This document shows positions 34,360 to 46,656 of a DNA stretch of 64,000 nt, one piece after another. The position numbers and the translations under genes were made by a program. Source of the DNA: Candidatus Hermodarchaeum yapensis (GTDB lineage: Archaea > Asgardarchaeota > Hermodarchaeia > Hermodarchaeales > Hermodarchaeaceae); contig JAEOSK010000005.1 of assembly GCA_016840405.1 (NCBI GenBank), forward strand, positions 1 through 64,000. Reading direction: 5' to 3'. The notes under the pieces are model-generated. The model searched no databases. It was not told the DNA's origin and worked only from the letters and a program-made list of their open reading frames with translations. Within the stretch, counting starts at the first letter, position 1. Each line of letters starts with the position of its first letter.

Positions 34360-36294
34360 TTATTTTGAATCACGAATGGAATCAAAGGCTTCGGGATTTT
34401 CAACAGAAGACAAATCCCCGACTTCGTGACCAAGATATACACGTTTAATTAATCGCCGGACGATTTTGCCGGATCGGGTTTTGGGTAATGCAGAGACAAA
34501 TCGGACCTCTTCAGGGAGGAAGGGTTTGCCCATGGTTTTTCCGACATATTGTCTCAATTCTTCTCGAAGGTCCTCGCTGATATCAAATCCAGATTTGAGT
34601 ACAACATAGGCGATGATTCCAGCCCCTTTGATTTCATGGGGAACCCCTATGGCAGCGACCTCGGAAACCGCTTTATGACTAATTAGTGCTGTTTCTATTT
34701 CAGAGGGACCAACTCGTTGGCTAGATACCTTGATGACATCATCTGCCCGACCCAGAAGAAACCAGAATCCATCTTCATCAACTTGAGCCAGATCTCCATG
34801 CCACCATATTCCAGGAAATGTTGACCAATAGGTTTCGATATAACGTTCGGGTGCATTCCAAAAGCCTCGTGTCATGGAAGGAGCCGGCTTGCGGCAAATG
34901 AGTGTACCAATATCTCCGCGAATACTCTTTCCAGTGTCATCAATGCAATCTATGTCCATTCCCAACCCGGGACCGCGCAGGGTTCGGGGTTTGAGATCAT
35001 TGATTGGCATGGGGCTTAAGAAACAACCAAAAATCTCAGTTCCTCCAGACAGGTTGATAATTGGGAGTTTGCCTTTCCCGACCGTGTTGAAATACCACAA
35101 CCAGCTGGTATCATCCCACGGTTCGCCAGTCGATCCCAAAATGCGGAGAGTGCTCATCTTATGTTTGTTGACCCATTCATCACCTAATCGAATGAGATAG
35201 CGAATAGCTGTTGGTGAAATACCGAATGCTGTTACTTTGTACTTATCTATGGTTTTCCATAGCTGGTCGGGTTGAGGAAAATCGATTGCACCTTCATAGA
35301 TAAGATGAGCCGCGCCTTGATGTTGTGCTCCGACGATTTGCCATGGGCCCATCATCCAGCCGAGGTCACTCAGCCAAAACAAAGTGTCAGTTTCTTTGAC
35401 ATCACAATAGTATGCGACTTCTTTTGCTGCCTGTGCTAAAGCCCCAGCATGAGAATGAACCGTGCCTTTTGGTTTCCCAGTTGTCCCCGAGCTGTATAAT
35501 ACCATTGCAGGATCTTCCGATTCCATCTGAGAGGTAGGCGCAGAAAGATCCATTCCATCAACGACATCATGCCACCATAGATCCACACCCTTATTCCAGG
35601 GGATTTTAAGACCTAGCCGTTTGAACAGAATCAAATGTTTGATTGATTTCACACCATCAACGCTTGCGTCTGCATTTTTCTTGAGTGGGATTTGTTTTCC
35701 ACGCCGAATAGAGCCATCTGCTGTGAAGAGAATTTTCGCTCCGACATCTTGGATTCGCATTTTCACTGCATCTGGACTAAATCCTGAAAAAATTGGGACA
35801 CCGATAGCGCCAATTTTATAGCTAGCTAGCAAGGCCATGACGGTTTCGGGAACCATTGGCATATAGATTGCACAGGGATCACCCTTCCCAATCCCTAATT
35901 CCTGTAGGGCATTTGCGAGTTTACATACGCCTTCATTGAGTTGTGCATAAGTTAGAATTCGATCTTCGCCGGTTTCGCTGACCCAGATGAGTGCTGTTTT
36001 GTTTGCTCGAGTTGATTGTACATGGCGATCAAGGATGTTGTGAACGATATTGAGTTTGCCACCCACAAACCATTTGGTCCATTCAATTCCTTTTGAGTCA
36101 TCTAACACCTGTGAATAGGGTTGATACCATTCAACGCCAATGTCTTTGAGTGCAGCGTCCCAAAACCATTCAATATCTTCAGTGCTACGACTAATTAGTT
36201 CATCGTAAGTGTTGATATTGTGTTTATTCATGAAGTGGCGTATGTTGCTGTTGGTTTGATAGTCACCCGAAGAACGCCAGATAATTTCACTCAT
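34360..36294 (-). CDS. AMP-forming acyl-CoA synthetase (acetate/acetoacetate-CoA ligase-like)
   Basis: YSSGTTGKPKG, STGEPW, SGGTE, HGD, GRADD, LPKTRSGK. Confidence 0.92.
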   Translation of the reverse strand: MSEIIWRSSGDYQTNSNIRHFMNKHNINTYDELISRSTEDIEWFWDAALKDIGVEWYQPYSQVLDDSKGIEWTKWFVGGKLNIVHNILDRHVQSTRANKTALIWVSETGEDRILTYAQLNEGVCKLANALQELGIGKGDPCAIYMPMVPETVMALLASYKIGAIGVPIFSGFSPDAVKMRIQDVGAKILFTADGSIRRGKQIPLKKNADASVDGVKSIKHLILFKRLGLKIPWNKGVDLWWHDVVDGMDLSAPTSQMESEDPAMVLYSSGTTGKPKGTVHSHAGALAQAAKEVAYYCDVKETDTLFWLSDLGWMMGPWQIVGAQHQGAAHLIYEGAIDFPQPDQLWKTIDKYKVTAFGISPTAIRYLIRLGDEWVNKHKMSTLRILGSTGEPWDDTSWLWYFNTVGKGKLPIINLSGGTEIFGCFLSPMPINDLKPRTLRGPGLGMDIDCIDDTGKSIRGDIGTLICRKPAPSMTRGFWNAPERYIETYWSTFPGIWWHGDLAQVDEDGFWFLLGRADDVIKVSSQRVGPSEIETALISHKAVSEVAAIGVPHEIKGAGIIAYVVLKSGFDISEDLREELRQYVGKTMGKPFLPEEVRFVSALPKTRSGKIVRRLIKRVYLGHEVGDLSSVENPEAFDSIRDSK

Positions 36295-36426
36295 AGCTTG
36301 ACACTCCTGGGAGTCCTTACAGTCTTATCGTTCGGTCTTTGTTCATATTTGTTTTTACTTAGGTTTCAATAACAGTGAAACACTTTTTACAGTTGATGCC
36401 TGTATTCGTGGAAAAGGTGGTCGATT

Positions 36427-37587
36427 GTGACAAACCGTGTCGCCATTATTGGTGTGGGTCAAAGTAGTTTTGGAAAACGCCCAGACTCGTCTATCCGTGA
36501 TTTGACGTTTGAAGCATTTCACGAAGCCATCGAGGACACCAAGAATTTAGAGAGAGATGAGATCGATGCGTCTTTGGTTGCTTCTTCATCTGGTTATGAC
36601 AAGCAGAGGTCACCTGCTGCGGTAATTGCCGGATATTTAGAATTAAATCCCCAACCGACTTTTCTCACTGAGGCCGCTTGTGCATCAAGTACTGTTGCTC
36701 TTCGCACTGCGTGGTCGTTTGTCAAGTCGGGTCTTCATGATGTTGTTGCTGTGATTGGTTATCAGAAAATGACAGATATGACATCTGAAGCGATTCAAGA
36801 GGTCATGGGCCGTGCTGGAGATGTTATGTTTGAATCACCCTTTGGCACTAGCATGCCAGCCTATTATGCCATGTTTGCTCGAGCACACATGGATGCTTAT
36901 GGTACAACTGAAGAAGATCTTGCGAAGGTTTCGGTGAAAAATCACTATTACAGTCAGTATAATCCAAAGGCTATGTTTCAGAAGGAGTTCACTTTAGAGA
37001 AAGTGCTGTCCTCTCGAGTAATCGCTAGCCCCTTGAAGAGTCTCGACTGCTGTGCTAATTCAGATGGCGCATCATGCCTAATTGTAGCCAATGAAGCAAA
37101 AGCGAAGAAGTTTGCCGAACAACCCGTTTGGATCAAAGGGTTGGGCCTTGGTTCAACAGCTATGTCTCTTGCTAGCCGTAACCCGCCTTTCACAGGTTTT
37201 GAAAGTGCGAAGGAAGCAGCTCGACAAGCCTACGCCATGGCAAGCATCAAACCCACAGATATCGATGTTGCAGAAGTTCATGACTGCTTCACAATTGCCG
37301 AACTCATTGCTTATGGGGATCTTGAATTCTGTAAACGTGAAGACAGCCCCAAAATGATACGTAATGAAGAAACACACCTTGGGGGACGTATACCTGTGAA
37401 TATTGATGGGGGCCTCCTATCAAAGGGTCATCCCGTAGGTGCAACTGGTGGTTCACAGATTCGAACTCTGGTGCATCAACTTCGTGGTGAAGGGGGAAAG
37501 ATGCAAGTGGATGGAGCAAAAATTGCTTTGGGTCACAATGTTGGTGGAATCGGGATGTATACGAATGTGACCATTCTGGAGGCCTAG
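36427..37587 (+). CDS. SCP2-type (archaeal) thiolase, second copy
   Basis: EAACASS, EVHDCF, GGLLSKGHPVGATG, HNVGG. Confidence 0.93.
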   Translation: MTNRVAIIGVGQSSFGKRPDSSIRDLTFEAFHEAIEDTKNLERDEIDASLVASSSGYDKQRSPAAVIAGYLELNPQPTFLTEAACASSTVALRTAWSFVKSGLHDVVAVIGYQKMTDMTSEAIQEVMGRAGDVMFESPFGTSMPAYYAMFARAHMDAYGTTEEDLAKVSVKNHYYSQYNPKAMFQKEFTLEKVLSSRVIASPLKSLDCCANSDGASCLIVANEAKAKKFAEQPVWIKGLGLGSTAMSLASRNPPFTGFESAKEAARQAYAMASIKPTDIDVAEVHDCFTIAELIAYGDLEFCKREDSPKMIRNEETHLGGRIPVNIDGGLLSKGHPVGATGGSQIRTLVHQLRGEGGKMQVDGAKIALGHNVGGIGMYTNVTILEA

Positions 37588-37601
37588 TATGGAGGTTTGA
37601 G

Positions 37602-38024
37602 GTGAATAGGATGGGATTTGAACGGTTTGGTTTTGTCAGTTATGTTTCGCAGGCAAAAATTGGTGAGTTTACCGAATACCTGAAAAACAATCAGCTAATG
37701 GGTACAAAGTGTAAAAAATGTGGGAAAGTCTATTTCCCACCACGTGGTGATTGCACCTCATGCCTTGGAGAGGAAATTGAATGGGTTGAAATCCAGGGTG
37801 AAGGTAAACTTGTTACCTTCACTCAAGTTAACTTTGCTCCAACGGGATTTCAAAAAGACGTCCCATATATTCTTGCACTTGGACAATTAAACAGTGGACA
37901 ATATGTTTTTGCTCGATTTTCCAAAGATGTGTCATTGGAACAGTTGAAAATCGGAATGGCGTTACAACTTGTACCGTGCAAAATCGATGAAGAACGAGTA
38001 ACATATGAGTTTCAGGTGCTTTAA
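37602..38024 (+). CDS. DUF35 Zn-ribbon/OB-fold thiolase partner, second copy
   Basis: CKKCGKVYFPPRGDCTSC followed by an OB fold. Confidence 0.9.
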   Translation: MNRMGFERFGFVSYVSQAKIGEFTEYLKNNQLMGTKCKKCGKVYFPPRGDCTSCLGEEIEWVEIQGEGKLVTFTQVNFAPTGFQKDVPYILALGQLNSGQYVFARFSKDVSLEQLKIGMALQLVPCKIDEERVTYEFQVL

Positions 38025-38029
38025 AGGGT

Positions 38030-39079
38030 TCACCGGAATTCTGGGATAACCTCAGTAGCAAAGAGCTTCAAGGTGTCCTTAAGCATCTTTGGGGGAACAA
38101 AGAAGTTGACAACCATATGTCGGACACCCGCCTTCTGATATTCCTTGATCCCTTTGATTACATCATCAGGTGTACCAAAGAAAACTGGGGCTTTGTCGAG
38201 AACGTCATCAGGAATCTCTTTTGCCATCGCCAGTAGTTTTTCAGTAACCTCTAAGTTCATAACCAAATGCCAAGTCATGTCGAACTCGTCGGTAACGTCA
38301 TCATATCCTAATCGACGAAGAATTCGTGGACGAGTTAGGAAGTAGATCTTTGCCCCGAGTCCCACATTTTTCCGAGCGGTTTCGTATTCATCAGCGACAA
38401 CTGTAAACACAAAGGCTGCAGGTTCAATTACATTCGGATCACGTCCAGCTTTCTTTGCGTGATCTCGGACAATCTGTAATTTCTCTGCATATTCATCAGG
38501 AAACATACTTGCTGGAACCCAACCATCACCCAACTCTCCAGCCATCTTCATAGTTTTGGGCGAATTTGCTGCAATCCATACCGGTGGGTTTGGTTCTTGA
38601 ATTGGTCGTGGTTGGAGAAATGCGTTATCTAATTTGTAGTACTTTCCGTCATAATTGGCAACCTCTTCTGTCCACAGCATCCGCATGACTTTTACGGCTT
38701 CACGTGTGCGTCCAAGAGGCTTTTTGAGATCAATTCCAAAAGGAAAGAGATTCATGGCTTCACCTAACCCGACGCCTACAATCGCTCTTCCATTTGAGAT
38801 GTGATCACAAGTAGTAATCATCTGTGCTAGCGCCGCCGGATGGTGACGATAGGTATCACCAACACAAGTGCCTAATTTCACATTCTTTGTTTGTGTGGCT
38901 ACAGCTGAGAGCGCTGACCAAGCTTCCAAGGCATCCCACCGTCGAATGCCAAATCCAACCGTATGATCGGGCATCCAAAAGGAATCGAATCCCATTTTTT
39001 CGATATATGTCGCCGTATCAAGGATTCGGTCCCAAGCTGAAGGAGTACTAACAACTCCAAATTTTAGTGTGTCTGACAT
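38030..39079 (-). CDS. LLM-class F420/flavin-dependent oxidoreductase
   Basis: GFDSFWMPDH, DHISNGR..VG.GLGE..N, PVWIAA, GDGW. Confidence 0.9.
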   Translation of the reverse strand: MSDTLKFGVVSTPSAWDRILDTATYIEKMGFDSFWMPDHTVGFGIRRWDALEAWSALSAVATQTKNVKLGTCVGDTYRHHPAALAQMITTCDHISNGRAIVGVGLGEAMNLFPFGIDLKKPLGRTREAVKVMRMLWTEEVANYDGKYYKLDNAFLQPRPIQEPNPPVWIAANSPKTMKMAGELGDGWVPASMFPDEYAEKLQIVRDHAKKAGRDPNVIEPAAFVFTVVADEYETARKNVGLGAKIYFLTRPRILRRLGYDDVTDEFDMTWHLVMNLEVTEKLLAMAKEIPDDVLDKAPVFFGTPDDVIKGIKEYQKAGVRHMVVNFFVPPKMLKDTLKLFATEVIPEFR

Positions 39080-39090
39080 TCTCTTGCCTC

Positions 39091-39855
39091 CTATTTATCC
39101 ACAACTTTGGGTTCACGCTTTTCTAAGAAAGCTCTAACGCCTTCTTTGGCATCTTCAGTTTCAAGGAGTTTTCTCATGTACTGAGCTTCAATAAACAAGC
39201 CTTCTTCAAGAGTGCGCTGAGTGGCTTCTTTCAGAGCCCGTTTAGCATATTTTAACGCAACAAGGCCCCGCTTTGCGATTCGTTCTGCAAGAGCCATTGC
39301 GGTAGGGATTAGCTGATCTGGTGGGACGATTTTGTACACAAAGTCTCCCATTTGAGATGCTGGTACAATGTCACCGGTAAAAATGAGTTCACGGGCTAAT
39401 TGGGGGTTCATCCACCGTTGTATACGTTGGGTACCACCCCATCCTGGAATGACGCCTAGCTTGATTTCGGGTTGCCCGAATTTCGCTGTTTCCGAGGCGA
39501 TAACAAAATCACAGGCCATGGTAATTTCCATGCCTCCACCCAAGCAAAATCCATTGACAGCAACAATAATTGGCTTTGAAGTCCTTTCCAAAGATAAGGT
39601 AAAATTCTGACCCGTTCTAGTCAGCTGGTCAGCCCTGTCTGCATCTTGACCCTCAAACTGTTTGATGTCTGCACCACCAACAAAGAACCTATCACCAGCT
39701 CCCGTAAGAATTACAACCTTGGTGTCATCCTCATCAAGTTCTGAAAATACTATTTCAAGTGTTTGAAAGACTTCCGGGGTTAGGGCATTTGCGGGAGGAT
39801 TGTTTATTGTGACTGTTACCACCTGTTTCTTTTTTTCAACTTCGACTAATGGCAT
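39091..39855 (-). CDS. Enoyl-CoA hydratase (crotonase)
   Basis: PPANAL, GADI, LGGGME, GQPEI.LG..PGWGGTQR. Confidence 0.93.
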   Translation of the reverse strand: MPLVEVEKKKQVVTVTINNPPANALTPEVFQTLEIVFSELDEDDTKVVILTGAGDRFFVGGADIKQFEGQDADRADQLTRTGQNFTLSLERTSKPIIVAVNGFCLGGGMEITMACDFVIASETAKFGQPEIKLGVIPGWGGTQRIQRWMNPQLARELIFTGDIVPASQMGDFVYKIVPPDQLIPTAMALAERIAKRGLVALKYAKRALKEATQRTLEEGLFIEAQYMRKLLETEDAKEGVRAFLEKREPKVVDK

Positions 39856-40082: not shown

Positions 40083-40559
40083 GTGTGTGGCTATTTGAGT
40101 TCTACTGTTAAAAGTAGACAACCAAAAAGAAAACCGTCCAGACGACGGGTTATTGTTTCTGACACTCCAGAAGAGTTACCTGAAGCCATTGCTTGGTTAC
40201 GCAAGCTAGTAACCACAATTATTACGATGAACTTAGAAGGGATCATGCGATTGAAAGATCAGTTTGACCAGATTTACGATGATCACGTTGATGAGTTTGA
40301 CCGGAAACTTCGCAAGATAGATTTTGAAAAAGCCGAAGATATCCAAGGTCATTCCGATGCAAAAGTGGTCCTTGGTTATTTGTTAGCAGTCTGTAAATAT
40401 CTCGAACGCCTTGCGGATATCAAGAAGCAAAATCAACATTCGTCTTCGCGAAAACAAGAATCGGATTCATTAGCGAATGCACTACAGAAAGACCTAACAA
40501 AAGAACTGCGTGCCTTCTCCCGTGAATTAGAACAAACCCATGGAATCAAACCCAAGTAA
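40083..40559 (+). CDS. Hypothetical all-alpha protein with basic N-terminal tail
   Basis: KSRQPKRKPSRRR followed by amphipathic helices; likely TTG start at 40095. Confidence 0.7.
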   Translation: MCGYLSSTVKSRQPKRKPSRRRVIVSDTPEELPEAIAWLRKLVTTIITMNLEGIMRLKDQFDQIYDDHVDEFDRKLRKIDFEKAEDIQGHSDAKVVLGYLLAVCKYLERLADIKKQNQHSSSRKQESDSLANALQKDLTKELRAFSRELEQTHGIKPK

Positions 40560-40677
40560 TTCCAAAATAGCACTTTTGAAGCCGCCTTAATAGTTCCATT
40601 ACGTTTAGACGTTGCAGCAAAACCCTTTTGGAATTTAACACACCAATATCCTGCATAATTCAAGTTGGTTATGGAAA

Positions 40678-41424
40678 ATGACTGGAATTTCTTCGCTTAC
40701 TGCTTCTTTGAAAAAGAATCAATCTATTATTGATGAACTTGCAGCAACAACTCAAAAGGCATTGGCTTCACTTTTGAATCAAATCGACCGTCTCCTTGAA
40801 TTATCCGCTCACTTACAGGAATCGTGGGAAGATCGACAGGCAACTGAAGAGGAATTATCTCATGATTCTTCCTCTTTGGCTGGTGAGCTTGAAGCGGAAA
40901 CCCGGGAGAAGTCGAAGCTTGAAACAACAGATTCCACTCAAAGGCAGGTATTAGCAGAGGCAAAAGCAGAACGTGGGAAATTACAAGAAGAAGTAACAAC
41001 GGCGGAGAAAACTCTTGAAGACTTAGAAGATCAACTTCGCACCCTTGATCGGACCCTTCGAGAACAGGATAAAGCGCTGGTTAAGGTTGAGGAGCAACTC
41101 AATAAGGTTGATGAGAAACACACTCACCAATTAGAGGACCTTGAAACAAAAGCAAATGAGGCGTTAAATGAAGCTGAATTATTGGAGGCAAAATACAAAG
41201 CGCTTCGGTATCTTGTTCAAGAAAAAATCATAACCTCGCCTGAAGCAAAAGTGGCTCTTGAACTGAAAGGAAAAGAAACCGCGACTATTGATCATCTCCA
41301 AAAAACAACGTTCATAGGTCGATTCAAAGTCAGGGAAATTCTCGAGCAAATGACCGAACACAAAATTGTCAAGTTTGATCGTGGTTCAGGACAGGTGAAA
41401 GTGCTGAAACCCATTGATTTGTGA
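40678..41424 (+). CDS. Long coiled-coil protein with C-terminal winged-helix domain (paralog A)
   Basis: ~180 aa E/Q/L/K heptad region, then PEAKVALEL...TIDHLQK...VREILEQM.EHKIVKFD...VKV. Confidence 0.8.
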   Translation: MTGISSLTASLKKNQSIIDELAATTQKALASLLNQIDRLLELSAHLQESWEDRQATEEELSHDSSSLAGELEAETREKSKLETTDSTQRQVLAEAKAERGKLQEEVTTAEKTLEDLEDQLRTLDRTLREQDKALVKVEEQLNKVDEKHTHQLEDLETKANEALNEAELLEAKYKALRYLVQEKIITSPEAKVALELKGKETATIDHLQKTTFIGRFKVREILEQMTEHKIVKFDRGSGQVKVLKPIDL

Positions 41425-41444
41425 AATGCGTGAGGATGATATTG

Positions 41445-42182
41445 ATGGCTGAAATGAAAGAACTCCAACAAGGAATGGAAAAGAACCAAGCACAAATGAA
41501 GGCTTTACGTGAAGCGTTTCACTCTCAAATGTCGGTCCTAGTTAACGAAGTTACCACGAGCTTACAAACCCTGACCCGTATTGAACGTGAATTTCAACTC
41601 TCTGAAACTCGAATGCAAGAACAGCGAGAGACGATTAACCACCTTCAGGAACAATTGACCCAACTTCGAGAAACAGGAAGTGAGATGGAAGCTAAGATTG
41701 CTAGTATCTTCAACGAACTTAACGAACATCAGCAAAAAATTGCAGCATATAATGCCACACTTATGGAAACCCAAGGTCGTATTGAAATCGTCGAAAACGA
41801 TGTCAACCAACGCAAGGCAGAAAGTGACGTGAAGCAGCGACAATTAGAGGAAAAACAACGTGAACTTGGACGCCGTAATGCTGAGAAGGATCAAGAAGTA
41901 ACCAAATACAGAGAGGATTTTTCAAAAGCGAAGAAACAGGCAGGTCAAGTGAAGAAAGACAATCCCATGGCCAATTACTTATTGACTGAAGGCTTAGAAC
42001 CCCCTGAACTCGATATTCTTGCAGTATTGATTCACAAGAAAGAAGTTACAGTAGCAGATCTCAAACGGACTGCTAAAACTCCCCCCGCAATCACGACCCG
42101 CGTTTTGAAAGAAATGGAAAATAAGGGAATCCTTGAACTCACCAGTGATGATAAAGCCCGCTTAGCAATTTCCATAGAGTGA
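41445..42182 (+). CDS. Long coiled-coil protein with C-terminal winged-helix domain (paralog B)
   Basis: ~175 aa heptad region, then PELDILAVL...TVADLKR...TRVLKEMENKGILEL...ARL; ATG 41445 after GAGGATGA. Confidence 0.8.
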   Translation: MAEMKELQQGMEKNQAQMKALREAFHSQMSVLVNEVTTSLQTLTRIEREFQLSETRMQEQRETINHLQEQLTQLRETGSEMEAKIASIFNELNEHQQKIAAYNATLMETQGRIEIVENDVNQRKAESDVKQRQLEEKQRELGRRNAEKDQEVTKYREDFSKAKKQAGQVKKDNPMANYLLTEGLEPPELDILAVLIHKKEVTVADLKRTAKTPPAITTRVLKEMENKGILELTSDDKARLAISIE

Positions 42183-42241: not shown

Positions 42242-43228
42242 GTGGATGGTGCGACTTTGCACAGTGATCTAGATAAGAAGGCATTACGTGCTAAGAAGAA
42301 AGCAAAGTCCACATCATATCCTGAAAGACAATTAGAAGAACTTCTCAAGAATCAATCCTTGGAAATCCCGCACACCAAACATCATCTGGTTATAGGTGAC
42401 AGCCGGGACATGCCCGAAATCGCTGATACTTCCGTCCATCTTGTTGTGACTTCACCACCCTACCCCATGATTGACATATGGAACGAGCTCTTCGAAGAAA
42501 TGGGATGCCCCAATTTTAACACAATGCACGCCTATCTCGCTCAAGTTTGGAAAGAATGCTATCGGGTATTAGTCGATGGCGGTATTGCCTGCATCAATAT
42601 TGGAGATGCCCTACGCAAAATTGATGGAAAATTTCAATTGTATTCTAATCACGTTAAGGTTACCCAAGAGTGCGAAGCTCTAGGATTTACAAGCCTTCCA
42701 TATATTCTGTGGAAGAAACCTACGACACGACCAAATGCATTCCTTGGATCTGGTCTACTCCCCCCTAATGCATATATTACCCAAGATTGTGAATTCATTC
42801 TAATTTTCCGGAAAGGTCGTCCACGACGCTTTCCTCCAAAGGATTTGTATCGGTACGCAAGCCACTACAAGCTAGATGAACGCAACGCCTGGTTTACTCA
42901 GATTTGGCAGCTTCCGGGTGCTCGCCAAGAGAATCATTATCTATCTCGTCGAGTGGCCGCTTTTCCAGAAGAAATTGCGTATCGACTCATTCGAATGTTT
43001 TCAATAATTGGTGATACAGTTCTTGATCCCTTTCTGGGTTCGGGAACCACAATGAAGGTCGCAATAAACACTCATCGTAACAGTGTTGGCTATGAAATAG
43101 ATACTAAGCTAATTCCCACTATCAAAGAACGACTCTCAATTGAAGATGATATGTTCAACAAGTACTCAGTGGAAGCATTCGATATTTATCACCGTGAAGA
43201 TGACTCGAAGGAATCATACAAAGGGTAA
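42242..43228 (+). CDS. Beta-class N4-cytosine DNA methyltransferase (CTAG/Zim-like), orphan
   Basis: Motif IV TSPPY precedes motif I DPFLGSGTT; PPYPMI..W and W.KPT...F.GSG..PP.AY. Confidence 0.85.
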   Translation: MDGATLHSDLDKKALRAKKKAKSTSYPERQLEELLKNQSLEIPHTKHHLVIGDSRDMPEIADTSVHLVVTSPPYPMIDIWNELFEEMGCPNFNTMHAYLAQVWKECYRVLVDGGIACINIGDALRKIDGKFQLYSNHVKVTQECEALGFTSLPYILWKKPTTRPNAFLGSGLLPPNAYITQDCEFILIFRKGRPRRFPPKDLYRYASHYKLDERNAWFTQIWQLPGARQENHYLSRRVAAFPEEIAYRLIRMFSIIGDTVLDPFLGSGTTMKVAINTHRNSVGYEIDTKLIPTIKERLSIEDDMFNKYSVEAFDIYHREDDSKESYKG

Positions 43229-45180: not shown

Positions 45181-45594
45181 CTATTGGGTGATCCGGTGAG
45201 TGGCGCTTTTGATTGCAGATTCTAATTCAGAAAAAGTCAATTCATCTGGAAAGACTGGAACGGTATCCATGTCTTCCAAACTGATTGACAATAAAAACCA
45301 CAGGGCTTTGACTAGGATCTGTTGTAATTCGGCAGGTGAGGCTTGGATTACTTCCTGATTTAGTTCATCCAATGTTTTGCTTGCATGTGCTGTTTTTTTC
45401 TGTCCGTGGAGCTCCAAGTAAACGGGAGTCCAGCGATCGTAGAAGAATTTCATTGCGTCACGGATGTTGTAGTTGAACAGGTTACGGAGTTGTTGGGCAT
45501 CTACCCCATTGGTTGCAGCATCCATTACCTCGTCAATCCGTGGTAAGAGGACATCAGCAACGAAACTCTCAAGTTGATCATTGGGATTGGCCAT
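45181..45594 (-). CDS. Hypothetical alpha-helical protein
   Basis: 137-aa ORF, no recognised family; transcribed away from the AT-rich element. Confidence 0.65.
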   Translation of the reverse strand: MANPNDQLESFVADVLLPRIDEVMDAATNGVDAQQLRNLFNYNIRDAMKFFYDRWTPVYLELHGQKKTAHASKTLDELNQEVIQASPAELQQILVKALWFLLSISLEDMDTVPVFPDELTFSELESAIKSATHRITQ

Positions 45595-46050: not shown

Positions 46051-46656
46051 TCATTTGAGGGAGTCAAGAAACTCTTTGGTTTCTTCACCCTCTTCAACTA
46101 ACACAATATCCTGAGCACCCGCACGTTCATAGTCATATCGTCGAGCAATTAACATCGCATGGAATTTTTCACGTCCCGTTGAAGAACCACCACGCCAAAT
46201 GTAGATCTTATCAAAGGTGTCAAGGATAAACACATCATCAGATTTCAGGCTCTCCTTACTGCGAGGCACATCAACGAAGAGGTGTACTCCACCCACGATG
46301 TTGAGCCGAAAGAGTTTGAACTCGTGTTTTTCGAGAATCACCTTCTTCAAGATCCCCTCGGTATCCTGGTCGTTGATATTGATACGACCACCAAAAAGGT
46401 CAAGGAAGGCTGGAGGTTCACTTCGGGCTTCAACGGTGACAAGACGTGCTACGCCTTTACGATCTTGATCCCGCCATACGGAGGTTACCGCGCCGATGAA
46501 GCGTTCATCAACTGTGGCTCGACTTCCACACCAGAGATAGATGATGGGACCTGTATCGATTAGGTAGCAATCGCCATCACCAAAATCATTTACCATGTCT
46601 TCGGGAACGCGGAGTACATGCCCCCGTTGGATATGGTATTTTCGAAAATCTGTCAC
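46051..46656 (-). CDS. Two-domain gelsolin-like protein
   Basis: Two gelsolin repeats: F.DGDCYLID...IYLWCGS...EP..FL.LF and SL.SDDVFILD...IYIWRG...EG.E..EF. Confidence 0.92.
   Translation of the reverse strand: MTDFRKYHIQRGHVLRVPEDMVNDFGDGDCYLIDTGPIIYLWCGSRATVDERFIGAVTSVWRDQDRKGVARLVTVEARSEPPAFLDLFGGRININDQDTEGILKKVILEKHEFKLFRLNIVGGVHLFVDVPRSKESLKSDDVFILDTFDKIYIWRGGSSTGREKFHAMLIARRYDYERAGAQDIVLVEEGEETKEFLDSLK

Follow-up and report, generated by a model that had tools for sequence, protein, structure and literature searches.

In a 64,000-nucleotide (nt) stretch of the Asgard archaeon Candidatus Hermodarchaeum yapensis (GenBank assembly GCA_016840405.1, contig JAEOSK010000005.1, positions 1 to 64,000; hereafter the window), two adjacent genes, here called A and B, encode proteins of 248 and 245 amino acids (aa) that each consist of a long coiled coil followed by a single C-terminal winged-helix (wH) domain. 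The A:B pair is a real and widespread Asgard unit, undescribed in the family libraries and literature searched: none of Pfam, NCBIfam and the solved structures covers the architecture, and a full-text literature search retrieved no paper on the A/B family. We consider it probable that A and B, which arose by an ancient duplication and have been inherited together in Asgard archaea, encode products that assemble, 1:1, parallel and in register, into a heterodimeric coiled-coil rod with a twin-wH head. A preliminary description made from the sequence alone had proposed a parallel heterodimeric rod with twin wH heads, made by A and B as part of a three-gene module with the upstream gene U. The rod, at ~26 nm, is favoured by the charge pattern, the co-variation in length, the gene tree and a weak complex score. 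Synteny across Asgard genomes retains the A-B pair, and no described family covers it; the three-gene module did not hold, as U was found only in the genus and the A-then-B pair alone is conserved.

AlphaFold2 (AF2) was run for each chain with family alignments. The model of A comprises one helix (residues 2-181; predicted local distance difference test score, pLDDT, 90-96) followed by a wH at 188-242 with the topology H-E-H-H-E-E (mean pLDDT 88.9). That of B comprises a helix, a short second helix and a wH at 186-240 of the same topology as in A (mean pLDDT 86.3). Both the open reading frames and the models thus agree with the earlier account of two adjacent proteins with a long coiled coil and one C-terminal wH each. 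At the break in the B rod, N173 is invariant in the close family and P174 nearly so, and the short helix 174-181 aligns with the end of the A rod in a profile comparison with hhalign. The 'PE hinge' noted before the heads proved real: it reads SPEAKV in A and PPELDI in B, the two align to each other (hhalign), and E188 of B is invariant throughout the phylum. Also conserved phylum-wide in the B wH are P213-P214 (a PP motif) and, where helix 3 begins, R219. The heptad frame of A runs unbroken from residue 8 to ~150, and the A rod has a net charge of -16. No ATPase domain was found in U, A or B with Pfam or NCBIfam, as the preliminary description had stated.

The last 55 residues of B match Pfam MarR_2 at 33.4 bits (cut-off 27) and MarR at 25.0 bits (cut-off 24.6). 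The C terminus of A gives a weak FtsK-gamma match only in Pfam and no MarR match, its wH being recognized by fold only. In a Protein Data Bank (PDB) profile search the A wH retrieved a MarR chain (E 3e-4) and a cullin-2 segment (E 2.6e-3), and its Foldseek matches were MarR, FtsK-gamma, TrmBL2 and the Rpn6 wH. The ranking obtained with Foldseek and VIA is flat, with MarR, IclR, ArsR, Zalpha, FtsK-gamma, cullin WHB, RPA32 and Rpn6 all at Z 9-10.5 and the wH part alone matched; the heads are therefore canonical wH domains that carry no signal specific to any one family. Other Pfam matches of A and B are sub-threshold coiled-coil noise, and PDB sequence-profile searches returned only such noise and generic wH matches. 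No solved or Atlas model of the rod and C-terminal wH as a whole was found by Foldseek against the PDB, by VIA (wide search, for B) or by an ESM Atlas shape search; the matches covered the wH or separate parts only, and the whole architecture may exist elsewhere.

Close homologues of A and B, about 38 each, share 55-92% identity and all come from Hermodarchaeial-type metagenome-assembled genomes. Their lengths are 247-250 aa for A and 244-245 aa for B, and the homologues of the two genes occur on the same contigs under consecutive locus tags. A profile of diverse B proteins extended the B family to at least 569 clusters at 90% identity (E <= 1e-5), of which every named one is Asgard; their database labels are hypothetical, 'MarR family' or the automatic JGI label 'chromosome segregation ATPase'. 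Because of these close homologues and B-family clusters, A and B are real genes and not chance open reading frames. A hidden Markov model search of the full library of 1.84 billion representatives was flooded by giant coiled-coil proteins that matched the rod columns, and full-length matches alone were used. These were only 246-254 or 283-284 aa long, and the remotest named ones belong to Hodarchaeales and Heimdallarchaeota. A related-locus search with a close alignment returned Hermodarchaeial relatives only and is uninformative on presence outside Asgard. Among the genomes of the phylum with at least 90% completeness, 135 of 190 contain a match at E <= 1e-8. The largest family sampled accounts for 86 of these, out of 89 genomes; in another family 11 of 11 genomes match, and in family f6 just 4 of 40 do, weakly. 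Families f9 and f21 have the pair, which largely escaped detection in f6 and f18. In the ESM Atlas, Bathyarchaeota clusters of 209-251-aa hypothetical proteins with MarR/TrmB domains resemble B in language-model features, with scores of 0.77-0.86 that lie below the reliable range. These look-alikes may be single-gene relatives outside Asgard and a lead to a homodimeric ancestor.

Gene order is constant across this distribution. Directly upstream of B lies A, both in 12 out of 12 loci taken from distant Asgard families and in every further locus with space for both genes (>40 loci, at least 10 Asgard families), and the two are separated by -4 to about +25 nt throughout. The conserved unit is this pair of two genes. 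Compared at full length by hhalign, A and B align with a probability of 91% (E 1e-6); the hinge and wH were also compared alone, because an artefact of coiled-coil composition had to be excluded, and gave a probability of 97.5% (E 5e-12, 70 columns). In a maximum-likelihood tree of 16 cognate pairs from eight Asgard families, all A sequences split from all B sequences with 99/99 support and the two halves mirror each other, and the duplication is therefore older than the sampled families, the genes having co-diverged since. Judged by their sequences, A and B are ancient paralogues co-inherited Asgard-wide, in keeping with their earlier portrayal as diverged proteins of matched length. Two loci of the same genus carry tandem double pairs (A-B-A-B), namely L045 (G043:C27:68000-76000) and L046 (G110:C8:1-7000). 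Their second pair is much more diverged (~120-145 bits vs ~206-260 bits), and the window's genome has one pair only.

The lengths of the two proteins co-vary. Short pairs combine an A of 248-250 aa with a B of 242-249 aa, and long pairs an A of 283-284 aa with a B of 285-289 aa. The long variant is found in family f9 (L025, L029, L031, L033 and L034) and arose by duplication of the whole unit within one family; genomes G099 and G221 hold one short and one long pair each. The extension of ~33 residues, about five heptads, lies in the C-terminal third of both rods, near the head, as parallel rather than antiparallel pairing would predict. The A and B rods also follow the same absolute heptad frame from residue 8 on. 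When g-e' charge pairs were counted in 13 cognate pairs, a heptad shift of 0 gave 141 attractive vs 56 repulsive pairs, a net of +0.122 per position, compared with -0.055 to +0.038 per position at all other heptad shifts, and antiparallel A:B arrangements showed no charge complementarity. Homodimer counts in 20 pairs were net repulsive for A:A (94 attractive vs 172 repulsive) and about neutral for B:B (182 vs 158). Complex prediction for A with B yielded an ipSAE of 0.57, against 0.00 for the best of three controls, with contact agreement between runs of at least 97% and a partner pLDDT of at least 84. Among solved complexes 58 of 80 attained the mark set for this score, as did 2 of 110 mismatched pairs; at 0.60 or under, only 7 of the 80 solved complexes did so, together with both passing mismatches. 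Given the fold, paralogy, adjacency, length co-variation, mirrored trees and charge complementarity, it is most likely that A and B form a complex.

Conservation in both families is highest at residues 171-245, which comprise the rod end, hinge and wH. The rods show generic conservation only but a fixed length, which points to a spacer or dimeriser bearing a functional head. Across the phylum, the net charge of the wH ranges from -2 to +4 in A and from -5 to +2 in B, and both heads are acidic in the f9 lineage. In the window's genome the A wH is basic (net +3, isoelectric point (pI) 9.5), and helix 3 of A is variable and acidic in some lineages. Heads that in many lineages are neutral or acidic argue against generic DNA binding and make a protein the likelier partner. 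The explanation that we favour is a protein-binding head on a fixed-length adaptor or tether. A and B would pair 1:1, parallel and in register, to give a coiled-coil rod of ~175 residues and ~26 nm, and the C-terminal end of this rod would bear a composite head made of two paralogous wH domains and the conserved rod-end and hinge segments. The poorly conserved rod would act as dimeriser and spacer of fixed length and the head as the conserved functional end, which would bind a conserved partner, more probably a protein than DNA.

Several observations weigh against this explanation. The verdict of the complex-prediction tool was 'weak support', and the AF2 models are monomers, silent on oligomeric state; tetramers or filaments of A:B may form instead. 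For the window's own pair the A:B g-e' count is unfavourable (5 attractive vs 7 repulsive) and B:B is acceptable (10 vs 4), so that the preference for a heterodimer rests on the family-wide sum. The cognate pairs used in the charge and length tests are related and not independent, and common ancestry partly accounts for the shared heptad frames and matched lengths. Helix 3 of B keeps R219, usually with a lysine at 222, at the DNA-contact positions of MarR-type wH domains, and from these residues the head may bind DNA or RNA. The genes flanking the pair are unrelated between families and the context therefore yields no function. Finally, the head domain went undetected in three closed genomes, and the failure to find the pair in several closed genomes of the phylum means that it is not essential Asgard-wide.

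The heads could be read differently, as a twin-wH unit that binds DNA, with the rod serving as a scaffold in chromosome organization, segregation or anchoring and with Hop2-Mnd1 or Bacillus RacA as functional analogues. The B wH does score above the Pfam MarR_2 cut-off, the best fold matches include many DNA-bound wH domains (MarR, IclR, ArsR, Zalpha), R219 is kept at the start of B helix 3, the A wH is basic in the window's genome, and Hop2-Mnd1 binds double-stranded DNA through two juxtaposed wH domains at one zipper end (PMC4402518). However, the phylum-wide charge ranges given above, acidic for both heads in f9, the whole-protein pI values of 5.1 (A) and 5.65 (B) and the unconserved, in some lineages acidic, helix 3 of A all fit such a role poorly; the scores of wH domains that bind protein (cullin WHB, RPA32) are as high as those of DNA binders, and in 15 neighbourhoods the pair was never linked to SMC, ParA, Orc or any other chromosome gene. 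The role in chromosome organization or segregation that the preliminary description put forward finds no support here and is somewhat weakened by the absence of a conserved gene context and by the neutral-to-acidic wH, and we rate a DNA scaffold as rather unlikely, if well worth keeping in mind. It would be much more surprising if A and B were ordinary MarR/TrmB-type transcription factors that homodimerize through a long N-terminal zipper and stand side by side after a tandem duplication. One orthologue is labelled 'MarR family transcriptional regulator' by NCBI, B-family heads match the MarR, MarR_2, TrmB and IclR HTH models of Pfam, and the near-neutral B:B count is compatible with a B homodimer. 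A match to a known regulator family, which the preliminary description had named as counting against its reading, held for the 55-residue wH core of B, which matches MarR, and failed for the flanking dimerisation helices, which are absent, the wH lying at the extreme C terminus. A:A pairing is net repulsive, the strict A-then-B order, mirrored trees and co-varying lengths would be unexpected for independent regulators, no conserved target gene adjoins the pair, and a fixed rod of ~175 residues far exceeds what dimerisation needs.

Higher-order assembly, in which A:B protomers would form a polymer comparable to intermediate filaments or tropomyosin, for example head to tail with the wH on the N terminus of the next dimer, or along lokiactin, strikes us as improbable. 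It would agree with a rod length that is constant over deep divergence and whose long variant is a discrete step of ~35 residues, with the slightly better conservation of the N-terminal 20 residues of A compared with the rod, with weak Pfam 'Filament' matches on some members, and with a gelsolin gene 4 kb downstream in the window's genus. However, the Filament matches reach 17-22 bits against a cut-off of 40, as is typical of coiled-coil noise, the gelsolin linkage is genus-level only, and Fourier analysis of 32 rods showed neither a 19.7- nor a 39-residue period among their acidic, basic or hydrophobic residues (mean z < 1), so that a tropomyosin-like periodicity was rejected. That U, A and B work together as a three-gene module is the reading to which we give least credence. 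U lies 118 nt upstream of A on the same strand, and 10 of 13 genomes of the genus gave a match to it, each time on the contig of the pair and just upstream of A. Yet outside its genus U was not found, bar three marginal matches at E ~1e-3. Neither L003, which is of the same genus, nor L016 nor any of the 12 distant loci has it upstream of the pair. Its evolution is also faster than that of the pair, with identities of 51-85% among same-genus genomes vs ~55-92% for A and B. U and the downstream methyltransferase gene are genus-level neighbours, not components, of the A-B pair.

The A-B pair can be set beside several known systems. Hop2-Mnd1, a eukaryotic cofactor of meiotic recombination, is a parallel heterodimer of two paralogues, built as a rod from three short kinked zippers and a C-terminal helical cap, with its two wH domains side by side at the same end (PMC4402518). 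In architecture it is the closest analogue, with two paralogous subunits of ~200-250 aa; for A and B, the parallel pairing and the twin wH are predictions. Its wH domains are N-terminal, whereas those of A and B are C-terminal, its kinked zippers and helical-bundle cap contrast with the unbroken helix of ~175 residues modelled for each chain here, and the heads of A and B are not consistently basic. Neither A nor B matched Pfam TBPIP or Mnd1 at E <= 1.

The wH core of A and B shares its fold with MarR, TrmB and IclR proteins, which are the top Foldseek and VIA matches. MarR proteins are ~140-150 aa long, and the N- and C-terminal helices that flank their wH form the homodimer interface and a ligand pocket; they bind palindromic operators in a sequence-specific way. 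A and B, in contrast, have no dimerisation helices, no ligand-binding domain and nothing past strand 3, and are paired heterologous subunits. Membership of MarR failed on the dimerisation helices, absent from both models, although the B core is above the cut-off. TrmB proteins have an N-terminal wH, then a coiled-coil dimeriser and then a C-terminal sensing domain. Membership of TrmB was rejected: the order in A and B is reversed, there is no third domain, and the TrmB HTH model matches the wH core only. Ska1, a kinetochore protein of ~255 aa, resembles A and B in having an N-terminal coiled coil that joins paralogous subunits and a C-terminal wH-like head. In the Ska core, short bundles of three chains dimerise into a W shape, and the wH-like domain of Ska1 binds microtubules. 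The predicted 26-nm two-chain rod of A and B differs from this W-shaped bundle, and Ska1 was rejected in the absence of a Pfam SKA1 match, the sole PDB match (2lyc, E 0.26) lying inside the rod.

Like A and B, CdvB and arCOG09748 are helical in their N-terminal part and carry a wH at the C terminus, which in those systems mediates protein-protein contacts. The family arCOG09748, which combines a coiled coil with a C-terminal wH in Thermococcal ESCRT loci, is a different one with an extra central globular domain (PMC10936438). An assignment to ESCRT-III/CdvB was rejected, as the AF2 models (pLDDT 90-96) contain no Snf7 hairpin and Pfam gave no Snf7 match; linkage to Vps4/CdvC, CdvA or ESCRT genes was not seen in 15 neighbourhoods, and 0 of 10 annotated flanking genes were ESCRT. 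The likeness to SMC and Rad50 is limited to a long heptad-repeat region. These proteins were rejected too, with NCBIfam coil matches of 18-30 bits vs cut-offs of 567-729 and no SMC_N/AAA domain, hinge or antiparallel fold-back. The label 'chromosome segregation ATPase' is an artefact of coiled-coil composition.

The locus consists of three co-oriented open reading frames, U, A and B, bounded by an enoyl-CoA hydratase gene on the minus strand and a DNA methyltransferase gene (Table 1). The ATG start of B at 41445 agrees with the N termini of all homologues; an alternative GTG at 41421, overlapping the stop of A, would give a protein of 253 aa. The product of U has a pI of 9.2 and is helical and basic, as described earlier, with its basic tail at the N terminus.

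Table 1. Position of the three genes and of the parts of A and B in the window
Feature	Position	Strand	Description
Gene U	40083-40559	+	158 aa, GTG start, helical, basic N-terminal tail; neighbour limited to the genus
Gene A	40678-41424	+	248 aa, coiled coil and C-terminal wH (P0001); homologues 247-250 aa
A rod	40681-41220	+	Single unbroken helix, residues 2-181, ~26.7 nm at 0.1485 nm per residue (AF2)
A winged helix	41239-41403	+	Residues 188-242, preceded by SPE hinge (AF2, Foldseek, profile matches)
A-B spacer	41425-41444	+	20 nt; genes co-oriented and tightly linked
Gene B	41445-42182	+	245 aa, coiled coil and C-terminal wH (P0002)
B rod	41448-41987	+	Helix 2-172, break at N173-P174, short helix 174-181 (AF2)
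B winged helix	42000-42164	+	Residues 186-240; Pfam MarR_2 and VIA matches

Comparison of 15 neighbourhoods revealed no conserved flanking gene cluster. The flanks vary by family and include genes for a P-type ATPase, an ABC ATPase, VIT1/rubrerythrin, an MFS transporter, ThyX and TnpB; at L028:3962-5104 (+), in genome G044, a TnpB/Cas12f-like transposon nuclease (Pfam Cas12f1-like_TNB, E 7.7e-21) directly adjoins the pair. A downstream block of methyltransferase, PfkB, Usp and gelsolin genes is common to close relatives only. In the window, the methyltransferase gene (42242-43228, +; Pfam N6_N4 DNA methyltransferase, E 1.8e-41) begins 59 nt past B on the same strand; L001 and L003 also have it next to the pair, a linkage confined to the genus level. 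Gelsolin is an Asgard eukaryotic-signature actin regulator. The gelsolin protein encoded here (46051-46656, -) has 201 aa and two repeats (Pfam Gelsolin, E 2.6e-26, two stretches), and its position ~4 kb downstream of the pair is kept in the close relatives L001 and L003 and not in other families. Between the tandem-Usp and gelsolin genes, all three related loci have a gene for a 137-aa protein without a Pfam family (cluster c8; 45181-45594, -, in the window). Upstream of the pair, at 34360-39855, lies a fatty-acid/acyl-CoA cluster encoding a 644-aa acyl-CoA synthetase, a thiolase with a DUF35-type OB/zinc-ribbon partner, a luciferase-like monooxygenase and an enoyl-CoA hydratase. This acyl-CoA metabolism cluster is syntenic in L001.

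Paralogous coiled-coil heterodimers that have a fixed length and bear small globular heads are characteristic of the chromosome and cytoskeletal machinery of eukaryotes, as in Hop2-Mnd1, the Ndc80 complex and Ska. On a bolder view, which we regard as unlikely and offer as speculation, the A:B rod might be an Asgard-wide ruler or tether (26 nm; 31 nm in the long paralogue) whose twin-wH head docks on a conserved polymer or complex (chromatin, lokiactin, tubulin filaments or ESCRT) and whose N-terminal end docks on a second partner, making it a prokaryotic counterpart, by analogy or undetected ancestry, of Hop2-Mnd1, Ska and Ndc80/Spc24-25. The analysis corrects the misleading labels 'chromosome segregation ATPase' and 'MarR family regulator' carried by members of the family. 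The pair is widespread, it was duplicated before the sampled families diverged, and its length has been held within a few residues throughout. Identification of the partner of the twin-wH head would either contribute a new element to the biology of chromatin or the cytoskeleton in Asgard archaea or define a new kind of protein adaptor that works through wH domains.

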